Shown here: one piece after another, positions 2,365 through 19,331 of the stretch
Numbering within the stretch: the stretch's first letter is position 1
How the letters are laid out: each line of letters starts with the position of its first letter
Position numbers and translations under genes: made by a program
Notes under the pieces: model-generated
Seen by the model: the letters and a program-made list of their open reading frames with translations, nothing else
The model's database searches: none
What the model was told of the DNA's origin: nothing
Assembly: GCA_964434515.1 (NCBI GenBank)
Contig: CAYSWE010000001.1
Location: forward strand, 1-28,705
Direction: 5' to 3'
DNA: 28,705 bases
From: an uncultured Phycisphaerales bacterium
GTDB taxonomy: Bacteria > Planctomycetota > UBA1135 > GCA-002748355

Positions 2365-3624
2365 TTACCAGTGGTAGTCCCAGATCCGTGCTGGGGCGAT
2401 TCGCTCGTTGCGCGCGCCGCTGGCGAGCTGCAGGACGGCGCCGATGGGGCTCGCGGCGAGGTCGTCGCCGCGGGCATTGAACTGCGTGCCGCCCCAGCGC
2501 TTGCCGACGGCGACGAGGTCGAACTCGACGAATTGCGCGCGCTGGCGATCGAACGCCGCGTGTCCCAGGAGCCGCGTTTCCAGGCCGATTTCTTGTTGCG
2601 TTGGCCGGTCGCTGAAGCCTTGGATCCGCCACCGGCCCTTGCGCACCGCGCGGGTCGCACCGGTCAGCTTCAGGCGCACGATGTCGCCCTCGACCCTGTC
2701 GACGGTGGCGATGAGGCGTGCGGTCTGCACGTCGTGTTCACCAAACGGTGGCACTTGACCGCGCACGTTGTCGAGCAGGTTCAGTCGGACCAGTCGCCGG
2801 ATCAGGGGCTGCGGAACCGCGCGTCGCGCGCCGACCTTGGGTTTGGGCGGGACGAACTGTTTGGCCTCGCTCTTCTTGAACCACGCGTAGTCCAGGTTCC
2901 ACGCGCGCGCCCTCCAGTCGCGCGGACGGCTGGCACGGTCGCCGCTGGTTCGCGGTAGATCGCGGGTCGTGATGCGCAGCACCAGGCCGTCTTCGGGATA
3001 ACCGTCGATCCAGCGCTTGGTCTTGCCGAGCTCGGCGATGCGGGCTGCTGGCAAGTGGCGTTCGCTGGCCTCGAGTTCTTGCCACCGGTGGAGCGCGCGC
3101 CGCAGCATCCGGGCGACGACGTGTGCGTGGCGCGTGTTGCAAGACGCGAGGAACTTGCCGCTCGGCGCGACCGCGTAGATCCCCTGTCGCGTGTTGGACG
3201 GTTGGGTGCGCCCCTTGTAGTGACCTTGCTCGGCGAACTCCTGGAACGTCCGGCACTCGACATCCTTGCCGCGCTGCAGCCGCCCGACCTCGTCGGCTAC
3301 TGGAACGAACTGCTCGAGCAACGCTTGAATCTCGGCTTTGGACCAGACCGACCGCCTGGTCACGACACCGTTGTTTCACACGCAGCCGAGCGGGTGGCCG
3401 TTCATCGCCCAGAGCAGGACGGGCTTGTTGGTTCGTTCGCCCTCGATCAGCCCGTTGCGCAGCTCGCTGCGCCACCCGATCTTCCGGAAGGCGAGTTCCT
3501 CGGCCGTCGGCAGGATCGCCGCGCGCCATTCGGCCAGGCTGGCTTGGGTGAGTTGGGCGCCTTGCCTTGGGGTTGGATTGCCCGTGGAAACTGCGAGTAA
3601 CAGTGCAGCAGTGAGGAGTTGCAT
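2365..3624 (-). CDS. Putative exported selenoprotein: thioredoxin-like N-terminal domain with a C-V-U motif (Sec at codon 83) plus an uncharacterised C-terminal domain; 419 aa
   Basis: Track ORFs 3376..3939 and 2365..3363 are in the same frame, separated only by TGA at 3378-3376. Read-through gives ...KPVLLWAMNGHPLGCV-U-NNGVVTRRSVWSKAEIQALLEQFVPVADEV..., a continuous Trx-like pattern. ATG 3624 gives a hydrophobic leader (MQLLTAALLLAVSTG). A SECIS-like hairpin follows the UGA. The gene ends at TAA 2367-2365. Confidence 0.85.
3341..3361 (-). promoter_or_regulatory. Candidate bacterial SECIS element
   Basis: mRNA UGA-AACAACGGUGUCGU-GACCAG-GC-GGUC-GGU-CUGGUC. GACCAG pairs perfectly with CUGGUC. 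The GGUC apex starts 23 nt after the UGA and resembles the E. coli fdhF SECIS apex (AGGUCU). Confidence 0.75.
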
Positions 3625-9379: not shown

Positions 9380-10480
9380 ATGGTTCGAAAGATCGACAGA
9401 GACCACAGTCGCTTCCGGCAGATCGTTCGGGGAAAGATCAAGCAGGACCTGAAGAAGTTCGTCAGCTCCGGCGAGCTGATCGGCAAGCAGGGCGGCAAAT
9501 ACGTGTCGATCCCGATCCCGCAGATCAACCTGCCGCGATTTCGTTTTGGGCAGAACCCGCAGGGCGGCGTCGGCCAGGGTGAGGGCAACGAGGGAGACCC
9601 TGTCGAGGGTATGGGAGAGGGCGAGGGCCAGGCCGGCGAGGACCCGGGGCAGCACGTCTTGGAGGTCGACGTCAGCCTCGAGGACCTGGCGGCGATTCTC
9701 GGCGAGGAACTCGAGCTTCCAAACATCGAGCCCAAGGGGAAGAAGGTCATCAGCCAGGCCGGCGGCTCGTGGAAGGGCGTGCGCCGCGTTGGGCCCGAGA
9801 GCCTGCGCCACTTCAAGCGCACGTATCGCGAGGCGCTGAAGCGGCAGATCGCCGCCGGACTCTACGATCCGGACAACCCTGCGATCATTCCGATCCGCGG
9901 CGACAAGCGCTTCAAGTCGCGCAAGGAGACGGTGCACCCGCAGGCCAATGCCGCCATCATCTACATGATGGATGTGTCGGGCAGCATGGGGCGTGAGCAG
10001 AAGGAGATCGTGCGCATCGAGGCGTTCTGGATCGATACCTGGCTGCGTTCGCAGTACAAGAACATAGAAGTGCAGTACATCGTGCATGACGCGGTTGCTC
10101 ATCTCGTCGACCAGCACACGTTTTTTCATCTGCGCGAGTCTGGTGGAACCAAGATCTCCTCGGCCTACGAACTCTGTCTGCAGCTGATGGGGGACCGCTA
10201 TCCGGCCGACGAGTGGAACCTGTATCCATTCCATTTTTCCGACGGCGACAACTGGTCGACGCGCGACACCGAGCATTGCGTGAGCCTGCTGCGCGACCAG
10301 ATCCTCCCGGTGAGCAATCAGTTCTGCTATGGGCAGGTGAAGAGCGCATACGGCTCTGGCCAGTTCAAGAAGGACCTGGACGCCGCGCTCGGTGACGAGC
10401 AGCGGCTCGTCACGTCCGACATTCTGGATCGTGATGGGATCCTGGATTCCATCAAGTCGTTCCTCGGCAAGGGGCGCTGA
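9380..10480 (+). CDS. yeaH: DUF444 family (YeaH/YhbH) vWA-type protein
   Basis: [14 protein letters not shown] start, Gly-rich [10 protein letters not shown] region, [15 protein letters not shown]-like [19 protein letters not shown] and [16 protein letters not shown] overlap with the next gene. Confidence 0.93.
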
Positions 10481-12003
10481 TGGCCAACCTGACTCCGGAA
10501 CTCGCAGCGATTCACGAGGAAGTCAAGGCGCTGGCGAAACAGTATGGCCTCGACACCTTCGAGACGATCTTCGAACTGATCGATTCCGATCAGATGAATA
10601 TGATCGCCGCTTATGGCGGCTTCCCGACGCGCTATCCGCATTGGCGTTTCGGTATGGAGTACGAGCAGCTTGCCAAGAGCTACGAATACGGTCTTTCCAA
10701 GATCTACGAGCTCGTGATCAACAACGACCCGTGCTACGCCTATCTCATGCGCTCGAACGGGCTGACCGACCAGAAGCTCGTGATGGCGCACGTCTATGGG
10801 CATTGCGACTTCTTCAAGAACAACTATTGGTTCTCGAAGACCAATCGAAAGATGATGGACGCGATGGCCAACCACGGCACGCGGATTCGCGCCTACATGG
10901 ATCGACACGGCGTGGCCGAGGTCGAAGACTTTATCGACCGCGTGCACAGTCTCGACAACCTCATCGATCCACACAGTCCGTTCATCCAGCGAGAAGGCCA
11001 CGCGGCGGCCGCCGAGGAAGCGCAGTCCGAAGTGTCGCGCATGGCCGCCAAGGACTACATGGATCGCTACATCAACCCGCCGGAGTTTCTCGAGGCGCAG
11101 CAGCGTCAGCTCGACGAGGAACACGAGCGCAGCCTGGGCTTTCCGGCCGAACCGGCTCGCGATGTCCTCCAGTTCATGCTCGAGTACGCGCCGCTGCAAC
11201 GCTGGCAACAGGACGTGCTCGCGATGCTACGCGAGGAGGCCTACTACTTCGTGCCGCAGGCGATGACCAAGATCATGAACGAGGGCTGGGCCGTCTACTG
11301 GCATTCGACGATGATGTGCAATCACCTGGTCACCGCCGACGAGGTCGTGATCTATTGCGACCATCACTCGGGAACGCTCGCGACACAGCCGGGGCGCGTC
11401 AATCCCTACAAGCTCGGCGTCGAGTTGTTCCGCGACATCGAGCATCGCTGGAACCGTGGCAAGTTTGGCCTCGACTATCAGCGGATCGAGGACGCTCATG
11501 ACCGCCGCAGGTTCGACAACGGCGCTGGACTCGGGCGCGAGAAGATCTTCGCCGTGCGCAAGTCGCATAACGACGTGACGTTCATCGACGAGTTTCTCAA
11601 TGCCGAGTTCGCCGAAGACCAGAAGCTCTTCGTCTATGGTTTTAACCAGCGCACCGGCCAGTATGAGATCGTTGACCGCGACTGGACCAAGGTCAAACAG
11701 CAGCTGCTCTGGTCACTCACAAACTTTGGCCAGCCAAGGATCAGCGTCGTCGACGCCAACTACCAGAATCGGGGCGAACTCTACCTCTATCACGACTGGG
11801 CCGGAGTCGACCTGCAGTTCGAGGAGGCGGCGCAGACCCTACGAGCTCTGCACGCGATGTGGACCCGCCCTGTGCACCTAGAGACGCGCGAGGAAGGCAA
11901 CGGTCGACTGCTGAGCTTCGATGGCGAAGAGGTCCAGTTCCGGGAGCTGGCACCGGCTGCGGATGCGGCACTCGTCGTGGGGCAGGACTCGGACGAGGGC
12001 TGA
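10480..12003 (+). CDS. spoVR: SpoVR/YcgB family protein
   Basis: GGFPTRYPHWRFG, KIYELVINNDPCYAYL, HVYGHCDFFKNN, TKIMNEGWA, NPYKLG and DVTFIDEFL. Translationally coupled to the DUF444 gene. Confidence 0.93.
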   Translation: MANLTPELAAIHEEVKALAKQYGLDTFETIFELIDSDQMNMIAAYGGFPTRYPHWRFGMEYEQLAKSYEYGLSKIYELVINNDPCYAYLMRSNGLTDQKLVMAHVYGHCDFFKNNYWFSKTNRKMMDAMANHGTRIRAYMDRHGVAEVEDFIDRVHSLDNLIDPHSPFIQREGHAAAAEEAQSEVSRMAAKDYMDRYINPPEFLEAQQRQLDEEHERSLGFPAEPARDVLQFMLEYAPLQRWQQDVLAMLREEAYYFVPQAMTKIMNEGWAVYWHSTMMCNHLVTADEVVIYCDHHSGTLATQPGRVNPYKLGVELFRDIEHRWNRGKFGLDYQRIEDAHDRRRFDNGAGLGREKIFAVRKSHNDVTFIDEFLNAEFAEDQKLFVYGFNQRTGQYEIVDRDWTKVKQQLLWSLTNFGQPRISVVDANYQNRGELYLYHDWAGVDLQFEEAAQTLRALHAMWTRPVHLETREEGNGRLLSFDGEEVQFRELAPAADAALVVGQDSDEG

Positions 12004-13676: not shown

Positions 13677-14927
13677 ATGATCACGCATCAATCCAGGTCG
13701 CGGTTTCTCGCCGCGTTGGCTGTCTTGCTTCTTGGTGGCTTGGCTTCGGCGCAGCGACGCGTATGGATCGTGGATGGCGACGGCCGACCAGGAACCGACT
13801 TCCGCGTACTGCCAAAGGCCGTCGCCGCTGCGAAGGATGGTGACGTCATCCGAGTGCGCCGCAGGGCACTCTCGGTTCCCTATCGGGGCTTCGCGACGAG
13901 TAAGGCCTTGTCCATCCTGGCCGAGTCGGAAGGGATCCGGCTTTACACGCAGGTGACGGTCCACGATCTAGCCAGGGGGAAGGACGTCGTTCTGCGAGGG
14001 TTTGCGTTTAGCGCGCTTTTTCCACAAGGCGATATCGACCTGGTGACGGTGCGCGATTGCCGAGGGCGGGTGCTCATCGAGCAGTCGACCATGGAGCAGC
14101 CTTTTCCGCGGCGTGTTTGTGGTAAGGCCGCCGGACTTTTCGTGAAGGATTGTGCTGACGTCTCCCTTCACCAGCTCAAGGTCTCCGGTGCTCCAGGGAT
14201 CCGTGTTCAGGGGAGTTCGCTGCACGTGGCGAATTGTGACGTCCGTGGCGTGAGTGCCTGGCAGGTGCACTTTGTCTACTTCGGTGGATGCATCGCGATG
14301 GACGCTTCGGGCTCGATGGTCGACGTAGCCGGTGGCAAGCTCACGGGTGGCTCTGCGCCGTTCGTGCAGGTGTCCCTCGTTGTCCCAGCCCGCGAGGCTG
14401 TTCGACTCGACCGCACCTCCAGGCTGACCCTTCGCGGCGACGCGAGCACCGTGGTTCGCGCTGGTGAGCCCCACTTCACAAAGGTCGCAGTCTCGGCGAT
14501 CCTCGGTACTGGACAGCTCGTCATCGACCCCAGCATCCGCCCCCTGTCGGCCAACGGTGCGCCGCCGATCGCTGCGAGCCTGCGCACGACGCGCACGCGC
14601 CTCCCGGCGCTGGCGATGACGGGCGCCGGTCCGGGGGGGACGGCGCGCGGTCAGCTGTTCTCACCCCGCGGCGACTTCGTTTGGATCTTTCATGGCCTCG
14701 TAGCCGACAGGATTCCGCTCCCAATCCTCGGCGGCAGCTTGGCCCTGGACCCGCGCGTGATCTTTCTCGTCGCTCAAGGGAGGCAAGGCGCGACCGAGCA
14801 CTTCTCGGCAAGCTTTTCGATTCCCAAGCTCCCGGGGCTCGTTGGTTTCAAGTTCGGCTGGCAGGCGGTCAGCGGGACGGTTCGTGGGCTACGGTTGTCC
14901 AACGCGGTCCTGGCCGTCCACTTCTGA
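13677..14927 (+). CDS. Secreted protein with a probable right-handed beta-helix (pectin-lyase-like) region and a conserved-looking C-terminal domain; 416 aa
   Basis: GAGGAGG precedes ATG 13677. Signal peptide ending ...GGLASA-Q. N-terminal VWIVD...DF..L..AV.AAKDGDVIRVR is typical of beta-helix proteins, followed by short beta-strand repeats. Confidence 0.78.
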   Translation: MITHQSRSRFLAALAVLLLGGLASAQRRVWIVDGDGRPGTDFRVLPKAVAAAKDGDVIRVRRRALSVPYRGFATSKALSILAESEGIRLYTQVTVHDLARGKDVVLRGFAFSALFPQGDIDLVTVRDCRGRVLIEQSTMEQPFPRRVCGKAAGLFVKDCADVSLHQLKVSGAPGIRVQGSSLHVANCDVRGVSAWQVHFVYFGGCIAMDASGSMVDVAGGKLTGGSAPFVQVSLVVPAREAVRLDRTSRLTLRGDASTVVRAGEPHFTKVAVSAILGTGQLVIDPSIRPLSANGAPPIAASLRTTRTRLPALAMTGAGPGGTARGQLFSPRGDFVWIFHGLVADRIPLPILGGSLALDPRVIFLVAQGRQGATEHFSASFSIPKLPGLVGFKFGWQAVSGTVRGLRLSNAVLAVHF

Positions 14928-15095
14928 CGAAGAGCACGCCGTCTTGGCGGGGATGAGCGGTGCGACCAGGAAGCCGATAAGCAGCCCGATCCAGCCGGCT
15001 TCTTTCCAGTGGGTCCAGGATTGCACGGCAAATCCGAGCACGGCAGCGAGGATCACGACCGCGATCCTGCGTGGAGATGAAAGCGCTCACAACAT
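14889..15095 (-). CDS. Candidate small membrane selenoprotein, 68 aa: MLUALSSPRRIAVVILAAVLGFAVQSWTHWKEAGWIGLLIGFLVAPLIPAKTACSSSEVDGQDRVGQP
   Basis: Manual translation: ATG 15095, TTG, TGA 15089-15087, then an open frame with two hydrophobic helices to TAG 14891-14889. A SECIS-like hairpin follows the UGA. Not in the ORF track. Confidence 0.6.
15049..15068 (-). promoter_or_regulatory. Candidate bacterial SECIS element
   Basis: mRNA UGA-GCGCUUUCAUCUCCACGC-AGGAUC-GC-GGUC-GU-GAUCCU. AGGAUC pairs perfectly with GAUCCU, followed by G-U and C-G pairs closing a GGUC loop that starts 27 nt after the UGA. Confidence 0.6.
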
Positions 15096-15155
15096 GAGTG
15101 GATTCTCGCGGGGTAGGAACGTCCAAGCTACGCGCTCAGTGTATCGGAGACACCA

Positions 15156-16650: not shown

Positions 16651-19331
16651 CTGCGCGCGATGCCTGTCGTGCGGTTCGTGGCCTGTTGTTCGCGTACTGC
16701 GACAGCGAGCTGACGCCGGTGCAACGGGAGCAGGTCGATGAGCATGTGACCGCTTGCCGTTCGTGTGGGATGGAGCTGTCGCGTTGCGAGCTCGAGCTCA
16801 TGCGCTTGCGTGAGGTGCTCGTGCCGATGGAGCCGACGGCGCAGTTCACGCAAAACGTCATGGAGAGCGTGCGCGAGATCGTCGCCCGCGAGGCAGCGCA
16901 CGCGCCGCCGCAAGGCTTCACGCGCAAGGTCATGGACCGGGTGCGCGAGGAGGCGGGGGTTTCGCCGACGCCGTCGAGACTCGGGCGGTGGGGATTGCGC
17001 AGCTGGAGCGCGCGGCCTCACGCTGGGCCTCACGCTGGGGCGCACGCGGGGGCGCACGCTGGAGGCCGTCGTCCGCTGGGGGCCCGCGTACTCATCGCAG
17101 CTGCGGCCGTCCTGCTCGCGGTGATCTCGGTCGTGATCGCGTTGCGCAATCCAGCTGGCGAAACTGGTGCTGTACGCGCCGATTGGATTGTGGCCAGTGT
17201 TGTTGGTAGCGATGGGCTTGGTAGCGACGTTCTTGGTAGCGACGTTCTTGGTAGCGACGCTGCAGGGATCGTGCAGGCGGGCAACGTCCTCGACGTCCAA
17301 CATCGGTTTCACTGGGACGACGAACTCGTCGTGGTCGAGGCTCGCTCGGCCGGATCCGGAGACGGGCGTTGGCGCATCGAGTTTCGTGGACGAACCCAGG
17401 TCGAGTTCGTCGCGCGAGGTCACCTGCGGGTTGACGAAGGCGATGTGCGGTTGGTGCGCATGGAAGGTTCCGCTCCGATCCTTCTCGAAGGGCCGAGTGG
17501 TGAGTTCCTGCGAATGACGGGTAGCGCGCGTGACCCCGAATCGACCGAGCCAGGGGCCGGTGACTTCGACGTCGAAATCGACCGCGTCGAGCATGAGAGT
17601 GGCGCGCTGGCCGCCACCGGGCTGCGACGCGTGCGGCTGCGTGTTCGCGAGGGGCGGGTCTCGCTTCGCCAATCGGCGTTGGCCGACCCCGTGGTGGTGG
17701 ATGCCGGGTTCCAGGCGTGGCTGGAGCCGCTGCGGCCGCTGCGCATCGAGCCGCTTCATGGCAGGGCGCTCCGTGAGCGCCCGGTCGCGGCCAGCAAGCC
17801 CGTGCGTCCTGCGCGCGAGCTGCACATTCGTGGCTATGTGACCGACGTCGAGCGCAATGGCGTTGGCGGCGCGCGTGTGACGCTGCACGTCCATGGCAGG
17901 GGGCCGACGGAGGTCCTCGCTCGCGCCGATGGACTGTTCGACCTGCGAGCGGAGTTGCCGCGGATGACTCGTGAGACTCCGGAGAGGGAGATGTGGTTGT
18001 CGGCGCGGGCTGACGATCGCGACGACCTCGCGATGGTTCCGTTCCACCCATTGACGCGACGGCCCGAGGCTGGCGAGGTCCTGTTCGAGTCGGTGCAGCT
18101 CACTCGTTCGCAGAAGTTCCGTGGGCGTGTGGTCGCGGCCGCCGGTGCGCCGGTGCGCGACGCGAGGGTGCGGGTTCTGCGCTATGACTCGTTCTTTGGG
18201 CGGGCGCGGTTCTTGACACAATCCGATGCGCACACGGATGGCGCTGGACGTTTTCGGCTCTCCAGGTTGGTGCGCGAGCGTCGCGGTGAGACGACGGTTC
18301 TTTTGATCGAGCCCAAAGGGGCGCCGCCGTATGCTGCCTACGGGCTGTTGTCGGGAGTTCTGGCGCAGGGTGGCGGGGAGCACGTCGTGCGGGTTTCGGC
18401 GCCGCGCCAGGTCGAACTGCGCGTTCTGGATTCAGGTTCACGATTCGTTTGGGTCGAGCGCCGTCCTGCTGGGCCGGCCGGCCGCTTCTATCGGAACGTC
18501 GAGAAGCTTGCGTTGGCCCCGTCGGCGCGGACACTGCACGTGGAGATCGGTGCGGGCGAGCGAGTGCGCTGGTGGGAGGACCGTGGGACCGGTTCGCCAG
18601 TGCTCGGGCATGAGGCCAAAATCGCGCAGATCCCTACTGGTTCGGCCAGTGAGCAAGGCGTCGCCTTGCTGGAGCAGCCGTTTGCCGACCTGCCTCCCGC
18701 GGCGACGACTCCTACGGCCGCAGGGGCCGAGTTTGTGCCACTGCCGGGCCTGACGGCGTCGCTGTACGGGCGTTTCGGTCCGCGGCGCGGCTCGTCCAGG
18801 CACCGCGCAGCGCGGGGCCTGGCGCAGGTTTCGGTGCACTTGCTCGAGACATCGCTGGCGCGAGTTGCGGGTGCGCAGGTCTTTGTTCGTGTCGACGATG
18901 GACCGGCGTACTTTGTTGGCTGGAGTGATCAAGACGGCGCGATCGACCTGGGGCGGTTGCCTGTGGGGTCGCATGTGATGGCCTTGGCCGTGCAGGAGCG
19001 TCCCGCCGTCGGGCTGGGCGCCCACCGCTTCGTGGTTGGCGCGACCGACTCGAGCCAGCTGATCACGGTGAGTTCGACCCGGGGCATTCGGGGGCGTGGC
19101 CTCTCGGCTTTGGCGGGTGCCGCCTTCGCCAACGCGTTCGCCGAGCTTGCGGTCGTGAGCGGTCCGTTCCAGGGCTTCACCACGGGTGTCTCGATCGGTG
19201 CCGACGGGAGTTTGGACGCCGTGGATGTTCCGCCCGGAAAGGTGCAGGTGCGCGTCGGCAACCGGCGGGTCGAGGTCGACAACCGCTACGGTGAGGTCGA
19301 GCTACCCGATCCCAAGGAGTGGGGGCGGTAG
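16647..19331 (+). CDS. Large membrane-anchored zinc-binding anti-sigma factor (zf-HC2) with a long extracytoplasmic beta-rich region; 894 aa
   Basis: ATG 16647 is coupled to the sigma stop. Contains EHVTACRSC (HxxxCxxC), one TM segment (VLIAAAAVLLAVISVVIAL), a FecR-like strand pattern, then IRGYVTD...V.GARV.L and FRGRVV..AG.PV.DARV.V repeats (carboxypeptidase-regulatory/transthyretin-like). Confidence 0.85.
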   Translation: MTARDACRAVRGLLFAYCDSELTPVQREQVDEHVTACRSCGMELSRCELELMRLREVLVPMEPTAQFTQNVMESVREIVAREAAHAPPQGFTRKVMDRVREEAGVSPTPSRLGRWGLRSWSARPHAGPHAGAHAGAHAGGRRPLGARVLIAAAAVLLAVISVVIALRNPAGETGAVRADWIVASVVGSDGLGSDVLGSDVLGSDAAGIVQAGNVLDVQHRFHWDDELVVVEARSAGSGDGRWRIEFRGRTQVEFVARGHLRVDEGDVRLVRMEGSAPILLEGPSGEFLRMTGSARDPESTEPGAGDFDVEIDRVEHESGALAATGLRRVRLRVREGRVSLRQSALADPVVVDAGFQAWLEPLRPLRIEPLHGRALRERPVAASKPVRPARELHIRGYVTDVERNGVGGARVTLHVHGRGPTEVLARADGLFDLRAELPRMTRETPEREMWLSARADDRDDLAMVPFHPLTRRPEAGEVLFESVQLTRSQKFRGRVVAAAGAPVRDARVRVLRYDSFFGRARFLTQSDAHTDGAGRFRLSRLVRERRGETTVLLIEPKGAPPYAAYGLLSGVLAQGGGEHVVRVSAPRQVELRVLDSGSRFVWVERRPAGPAGRFYRNVEKLALAPSARTLHVEIGAGERVRWWEDRGTGSPVLGHEAKIAQIPTGSASEQGVALLEQPFADLPPAATTPTAAGAEFVPLPGLTASLYGRFGPRRGSSRHRAARGLAQVSVHLLETSLARVAGAQVFVRVDDGPAYFVGWSDQDGAIDLGRLPVGSHVMALAVQERPAVGLGAHRFVVGATDSSQLITVSSTRGIRGRGLSALAGAAFANAFAELAVVSGPFQGFTTGVSIGADGSLDAVDVPPGKVQVRVGNRRVEVDNRYGEVELPDPKEWGR
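17016..17063 (+). repeat. In-frame 12-nt tandem repeat x4 (PHAG-PHAG-AHAG-AHAG)
   Basis: cctcacgctggg cctcacgctggg gcgcacgcgggg gcgcacgctgga. Confidence 0.85.
17202..17261 (+). repeat. In-frame 15-nt tandem repeat x4 (VGSDG-LGSDV-LGSDV-LGSDA)
   Basis: gttggtagcgatggg cttggtagcgacgtt cttggtagcgacgtt cttggtagcgacgct. Confidence 0.9.

Follow-up and report, generated by a model that had tools for sequence, protein, structure and literature searches.

Two in-frame UGA codons of a Phycisphaerales genome are followed by hairpins that are very probably ordinary bacterial SECIS elements with the known GGUC core

Two hairpins on the minus strand of a 28,705-nt stretch of DNA from an uncultured Phycisphaerales bacterium (the whole of which is called the window here) carry an identical heptamer, GCGGUCG, at the apex. 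Each lies directly 3' of an in-frame UGA and within the open reading frame. Both are very probably ordinary bacterial SECIS elements, and GC-GGUC-G is then the known GGUC core and not a distinct signature of the lineage. The original prediction had proposed a possible lineage SECIS consensus. Its first part stands, as both hairpins behave like SECIS elements: the TGA, the hairpin and the spacing are conserved, synonymous sites in the loop are frozen, and SelA, SelB and SelD are encoded. The consensus part does not stand, since the heptamer is found at 3 and GGUC at 8 of 18 selenocysteine (Sec) sites, the first G of the heptamer varies, and E. coli fdhF has GGUC as well. Binding of SelB and actual insertion of selenocysteine at both UGAs are what we infer by analogy with known systems.

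Hairpins and host genes

The features of the two sites are as follows.

2365..3624, minus strand: predicted selenoprotein gene of site 1, about 419 aa when counted from the Met ahead of a signal-peptide-like segment, with a maximal open frame that extends to 3939
3376..3378, minus strand: in-frame UGA (putative Sec) of site 1, motif G-C-V-U-N-N-G
3341..3361, minus strand: candidate SECIS hairpin 1; 5' arm GACCAGGC (3361-3354), loop GGUCG (3353-3349), 3' arm GUCUGGUC (3348-3341)
14889..15095, minus strand: predicted microprotein gene of site 2, 68 aa, two-helix membrane protein beginning M-L-U, between two convergent genes
15087..15089, minus strand: in-frame UGA (putative Sec) of site 2, codon 3 of the microprotein gene
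15049..15068, minus strand: candidate SECIS hairpin 2; 5' arm AGGAUCGC (15068-15061), loop GGUC (15060-15057), 3' arm GUGAUCCU (15056-15049)

The stems had been described as perfect over 6 bp. This is correct, and a G·U and a C-G pair extend each stem to 8 bp, which leaves loops of 5 nt (GGUCG) and 4 nt (GGUC). The C and the G that flank GGUC are simply the loop-closing pair. Counted from the A of the UGA, GGUC starts at +22 nt at site 1 and at +26 nt at site 2; the 23 and 27 nt given earlier are the distances from the U of the UGA to the first base of the heptamer, and they agree. Both UGAs are in frame, as had been stated: at site 1 the codon joins two open frames, and at site 2 it is codon 3, followed by 65 open codons. 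Folding of hairpin 1 gave a dG of -12.8 over 8 bp and z = -3.1 for its 66-nt context. For hairpin 2 the dG was -10.6 for the 8-bp stem and -12.1 with two further outer pairs. Neither host protein had a Pfam or NCBIfam match, and an Rfam search of the window returned no match.

The gene at site 1

The UGA of site 1 links its two open frames in the motif ...NGHPLGCV-U-NNG..., and the coding score is positive on either side of it (0.57 and 0.33). A search of 41 related genomes returned 23 hits, 22 of which have one TGA, in frame and at the aligned position; the exception (locus L033) has TCA, a serine codon. A database homologue, P0105, has Cys in the Sec column. Another, P0006, has W there, the gene caller having evidently taken the TGA as Trp, and most of the other database homologues were called as fragments of about 320 aa that begin downstream of the UGA. 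The family is therefore systematically mis-annotated.

The hairpin is conserved together with the codon. In the orthologues, 81% of the cells of the helix are paired, compared with 12-60% in slid registers. Nine of ten close homologues have a GGUCN loop, all nine with the same 22-nt spacing; one further homologue has AGUUG, and in several paralogues that are less closely related, the loop is CGUGN and the register is shifted. The pair beneath the closing pair is A-U in five orthologues, G-U in four, and G-C in one. Because this pair varies, the heptamer does not keep its first G at site 1, where 5/10 orthologues have A instead. The 3' arm of some orthologue hairpins carries a bulged U.

Selenocysteine machinery and Sec sites of the genome

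The assembly is a 4.66-Mb MAG of 603 contigs with 64.7% G+C and 80.6% completeness, and its homologues are labelled Planctomycetota. It encodes SelA, SelD with an in-frame TGA in a G-U-A-A-K motif, and SelB, which has a SelB-wing_3 domain and E. coli SelB (5lzb) as its top PDB match. Only one SelB was found. The SelD gene (G000:C400, about 1068-1967) contains a short masked run (N, XXXX in the translation), and SelA is directly upstream on the same contig. ARAGORN and Rfam searches found no tRNA-Sec in this assembly, in which only 32 tRNAs were detected, and the best hits to the Rfam tRNA-Sec model were tRNA-Ser and tRNA-Leu. A tRNA-Sec above the Rfam threshold is present in the relatives G009, G018, and G031, which have both window genes. 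Four Molybdop_Fe4S4 hits in the genome all lack an in-frame stop, and no formate dehydrogenase with Sec was detected. A reassigned TGA, read for instance as Trp in the way P0006 was translated, was rejected, since TGA is the stop of over 1000 ORFs with good coding scores.

Further candidates came from a scan, by coding score, for TGAs with coding sequence on either side. When SelD and the two window genes are counted with them, there are at least 18 predicted Sec sites, so that this MAG is rich in selenoproteins, with at least 16 sites beyond the window. Redox Pfam domains span the TGA in 15 of the 16 additional candidates (AhpC/TSA, thioredoxin-like, deiodinase-like, CMD/AhpD, DsbD-Trx, and DUF3179). 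The products are a peroxiredoxin, several Trx-like and AhpC/TSA proteins, a DsbD-Trx fusion, a DUF3179 protein, SelD, two EF-hand plus deiodinase-like proteins, and two CMD/AhpD proteins. Three Trx_7 paralogues have the motif Y-U-(G/Q)-P-C in common. The further sites, on G000 contigs and with the 0-based index of the TGA, are listed here by strand.

Plus strand: C153+5294, C429+1238, C524+2545, C79+10773, C353+995, C530+3065, C74+11727, C424+1674, C331+5453
Minus strand: C212-2454, C306-884, C380-3251, C219-6958, C14-13843, C215-794, C400-3122

There may be a nineteenth site on G000:C168 (minus strand, TGA index 1547, locus L061). A well-scoring ORF of 332 codons reads ...KATFG-UGA-RKLPVLPVGR... 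and continues for 20 more codons, and a 7-bp hairpin with a GGUC tetraloop lies 20 nt past the UGA; the protein has no Pfam match. Two other candidates were discarded. The TGA at 11713-11715 (minus strand) of the window is a shadow of the plus-strand gene at 10480-12003, which scores well, and the TGA on C139 merely precedes a TTG/GTG start.

Apical loops at the Sec sites

The loops at the 18 Sec sites fall into the following classes, given with their distance from the UGA.

GGUC or GGUCN: 8/18 sites (7 independent families), +18 to +31
CGUGN: about 3-4 sites including SelD (CGUGA), +24 to +26
AGUUG: 1 site, +25
UGGCA: 1 site, +19
Unclear: 4 sites

The GGUC class occurs in all three codon phases, for instance as CGG-UCG at site 1 and GCG-GUC at site 2. 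It must therefore be set at the level of the RNA and not by a shared peptide.

SelD provides a second view of the same loops. The gene was found in 40 of 41 relatives, almost always with a TGA. Enumeration of contiguous stems misses the SelD hairpin of this genome; when one mismatch is allowed, a CGUGA pentaloop is recovered at +26 on a 3+4-bp stem, and this fold is backed by compensatory changes in relatives. The original prediction had named a known selenoprotein with another apex as grounds against a consensus, and in the strict sense this SelD is one. The loops of the relatives are distributed as follows.

CGUGA: 10
CGUGC: 6
CGGGC/A: 5
GGUCC: 2
GGUCG: 1
GGUGC: 1
CGUGU: 1

Two further sequences have loops, GCGC and GGCGCA, that are off the N-G-(U/G)-N-N pattern. 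On one and the same orthologous stem, GCGCA/UGCGC, the loops GGUCC, CGUGC, and GGUGC interchange, and the outer stem is again backed by compensatory changes. This interchange points to an order-wide loop rule of N-G-(U>G)-N-N. The distance from the UGA differs by family of the order (+19, +26, or +32; loci L084-L113), which suggests that the hairpin was re-formed elsewhere in the mRNA whereas the Sec codon did not move. The replacement of GGUCN, CGUGN, and CGGGN loops in SelD is also a clean natural data set on the loops that SelB tolerates.

Against this background the heptamer itself can be judged. It is identical at site 1, site 2, and C429, matches at six of seven bases in C380, and is complete in 16 of 17 orthologues of the microprotein; C-G also closes six of the eight GGUC-class loops. 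A planctomycete SelB that reads not only GGUC but also the closing C-G and the G beneath, with the whole 7-mer as its determinant, would account for these matches. Such an extended lineage consensus is nevertheless improbable. The exact heptamer is present at only 3/18 Sec sites, the other two GGUC-class closing pairs are U-A, and in two GGUC-class elements C, not G, stands ahead of the closing C. Variation of the first G in half of the site 1 orthologues, with that of the pair below the closing one, speaks against it as well, as do the CGUGN loops of SelD and others, the loop interchange in SelD orthologues, the same GGUC in E. coli fdhF, and the presence of a single SelB. The preferred reading remains that of ordinary SECIS elements with a GGUC core.

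The microprotein gene at site 2

Site 2 taken alone is not compelling. A UGA at codon 3 is highly unusual, the gene occupies a 228-nt gap between convergent genes, the context of hairpin 2 is not unusually stable (z = -0.65), and the coding scores are weak, at -0.01 upstream and 0.16 downstream of the UGA. Chance alone places a TGA 15-35 nt upstream of about 19-20% of strong GGUC hairpins. On these grounds the locus could be a two-codon mini-ORF or non-coding, its palindrome a terminator, an attenuator, or a by-product of the peptide R-I-A-V-V-I-L, and its likeness to hairpin 1 a coincidence. The comparison of orthologues overturned chance as an account of site 2, and we regard the absence of a SECIS element here as highly improbable.

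Seventeen genomes, which represent several families of the phylum, have a homologue. The window gene begins ATG-TTG-TGA, and start-Leu-TGA is kept in 17/17 homologues, the start being ATG in 16 and GTG in one and the Leu codon CTC in 15 and the synonymous TTG in two. Conservation does not extend 5' of the start, and in one homologue the ATG is immediately preceded by TAA. Between the UGA and the hairpin the amino acids are kept while the codons change, with four codons in use for Leu and four for Pro, so this stretch appears to be translated in frame. Initiation downstream of the UGA is a poor substitute: the sole candidate internal start, a GTG, is absent in 5/17 homologues, and some have no other in-frame start ahead of helix 1. 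The codons of the loop are frozen (Ala GCG in 16/16, Val GUC in 17/17), whereas other Ala, Pro, and Gly codons drift. No T-run follows hairpin 2, which argues against a terminator. All 17 homologues have TGA at the Sec position, and a Cys-containing form was not seen among them. All six of the closest homologues share a Cys near the C-terminus, as do most of the remaining eleven.

These observations support hairpin 2 as a SECIS element. Its GGUC loop and 26-nt spacing are invariant across the 17 genomes, and 90% of the cells of the helix are paired, compared with 34-52% in slid registers. At one pair, A-U is replaced by G-C and also by C-G. Covariation, which had been proposed as a check, was found in the form of one two-sided pair in each of the two alignments, but it is thin, and shuffle controls at site 1 are only weakly exceeded. 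The reason is that the stems must encode protein as well.

A -10-like hexamer that ends 6 nt before the ATG (TAGAAT, TAGACT, TACGCT, or TATGCT) is present in about half of the homologues of the microprotein. It was noted in the 12 nt before the ATG at loci L065, L069, L075, L064, L038, and L039, where no Shine-Dalgarno sequence is present, and the window has GAGAAT in the corresponding place (15096-15107, minus strand). From sequence alone, the mRNA may be leaderless. If it is, one translocation would separate 70S initiation from the decoding of the Sec UGA at codon 3.

Frequency of the motif

Caution had been advised about the heptamer on its own, and the counts support this even more strongly: the window contains 20 copies of GCGGTCG where shuffles predict 19.8, and the genome contains 3319. 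In the genome, hairpins with a stem of at least 5 bp number 122 with GCGGTCG and 544 with a GGUC loop, and 17 of the 19 GGUC hairpins with at least 8 bp are not SECIS elements. GGUC is therefore informative only together with a UGA and a reading frame.

When these are combined, the result is different. The scan looked for hairpins of 5 bp or more, with GGUC or GGUCN as the loop, located 15-35 nt past a TGA. In the suggested comparison with true TGA stops, such hairpins were strongly enriched at Sec codons, following 8/18 Sec-UGAs versus 1/1042 stop-like TGAs (Fisher p = 1e-14); they follow 0.125% of all TGA trinucleotides. A UGA, a gap of 15-35 nt, and a GGUC-loop hairpin thus tell Sec codons from stops almost perfectly. 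That both resemblances are chance in a 65% G+C genome with common GCGGTCG and short palindromes is a reading to which we give next to no weight, for although the heptamer stands at its chance level and such hairpins run into the hundreds, this enrichment already contradicts it, as do the conservation of the hairpins in orthologues of both genes and the UGA-to-loop spacing that is fixed in each family.

Three other GGUC-loop hairpins are found in the window, at 2449-2475 (plus strand), 2715-2733 (plus strand), and 18016-18034 (minus strand), with stems of 11, 7, and 7 bp and no UGA upstream. The first two are antisense inside the gene of site 1, and none of the three has an evident function. 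The window, with the two SECIS hairpins included, holds 5 of the genome's 70 GGUC-loop hairpins of at least 7 bp, compared with about 0.4 expected.

Proposed mechanism and significance

On the preferred reading, that of ordinary bacterial SECIS elements, a small apical loop with G-U at positions 2-3 (GGUC) would be displayed in the coding sequence just 3' of the UGA. By analogy with E. coli and Moorella, the loop would be bound by the C-terminal winged-helix domain of SelB, which also carries GTP and Sec-tRNA(Sec). Once tethered, this complex would compete with release factor 2 for the UGA in the A site of the ribosome and supply selenocysteine there. GC-GGUC-G would accordingly consist of the canonical GGUC core, the closing C-G, and the pair below, which happens to be G·U in both hairpins. 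GGUC(N) would be the commonest of several interchangeable loop variants of the order (GGUCN, CGUGN, and AGUUG; consensus N-G-U/G-N-N).

A more specific idea is tentative and, on balance, unlikely to be right. The SelB of the order might read a narrow N-G-U-N-N code, of which GGUC closed by C-G is the form of highest affinity, selected where decoding is hardest. In 17/17 genomes the microprotein, whose UGA is codon 3, has retained GGUC together with its closing pair and the spacing of 26 nt, whereas SelD and others drift among GGUCN, CGUGN, and CGGGN. If this were true, the identity of the SECIS loop would tune recoding efficiency gene by gene, and a scan for GGUC hairpins (about 44% sensitivity and 99.9% specificity here) would uncover hidden and even very short selenoproteins of the phylum.

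The signature lends independent support to two uncatalogued selenoprotein genes of the window: one encodes a C-x-U protein, the other a microprotein in which residue 3 is Sec. The same signature helped to reveal the at least 18 Sec sites of this planctomycete MAG.

Comparison with known SECIS elements

The closest known element is that of E. coli fdhF, GCAGGUCUGC, in which GGUC starts 18 nt past the UGA, as checked in 5419 E. coli genomes. The AGGUCU loop that had been given for it is correct. The likeness lies in a hairpin inside the ORF just past the Sec-UGA, the same GGUC, and the same reader protein, SelB. The G-U of the loop is the established determinant for SelB. The fdnG loop of E. coli is AGUCU. 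There are also differences. The fdhF loop has 6 nt, A-GGUC-U, whereas the window hairpins have loops of 4 or 5 nt closed by C-G, and GGUC is located at +22 and +26 in the window compared with +18 in fdhF. A bulged U in the upper stem is a feature of the fdhF type of SECIS element in E. coli; it is absent from both window hairpins, which thus fall outside this type when it is narrowly defined by the bulge and the +18 position. The host genes are unrelated to formate dehydrogenase.

Within the same genome and order, the SelD elements have the same architecture as the window hairpins and likewise G-U at loop positions 2-3, and a few SelD orthologues even have GGUCC or GGUCG. The SelD element of this genome differs in that it presents CGUGA, not GGUC, on a mismatched stem.

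The general bacterial model is broader. As summarised in PMC13188914, the bSECIS model (bSECISearch; Zhang and Gladyshev 2005) comprises a loop of 3-9 nt, an upper stem of 4-16 bp, a G in the first two loop positions, usually with G or U after it, and a UGA-to-loop distance of 16-37 nt. Hairpins 1 and 2 lie within all four of these ranges, and nothing in the constraints as given in that summary sets them apart in kind. The UGA is conserved at both sites, and the spacing is fixed within each set of orthologues. Compared with the model in this form, the loop repertoire of the genome and the order is narrower, consisting mostly of N-G-U-N-N pentaloops or GGUC tetraloops. The shared apex is no discovery in itself, as the SelB core is known from E. 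coli; the novelty is in the host genes.
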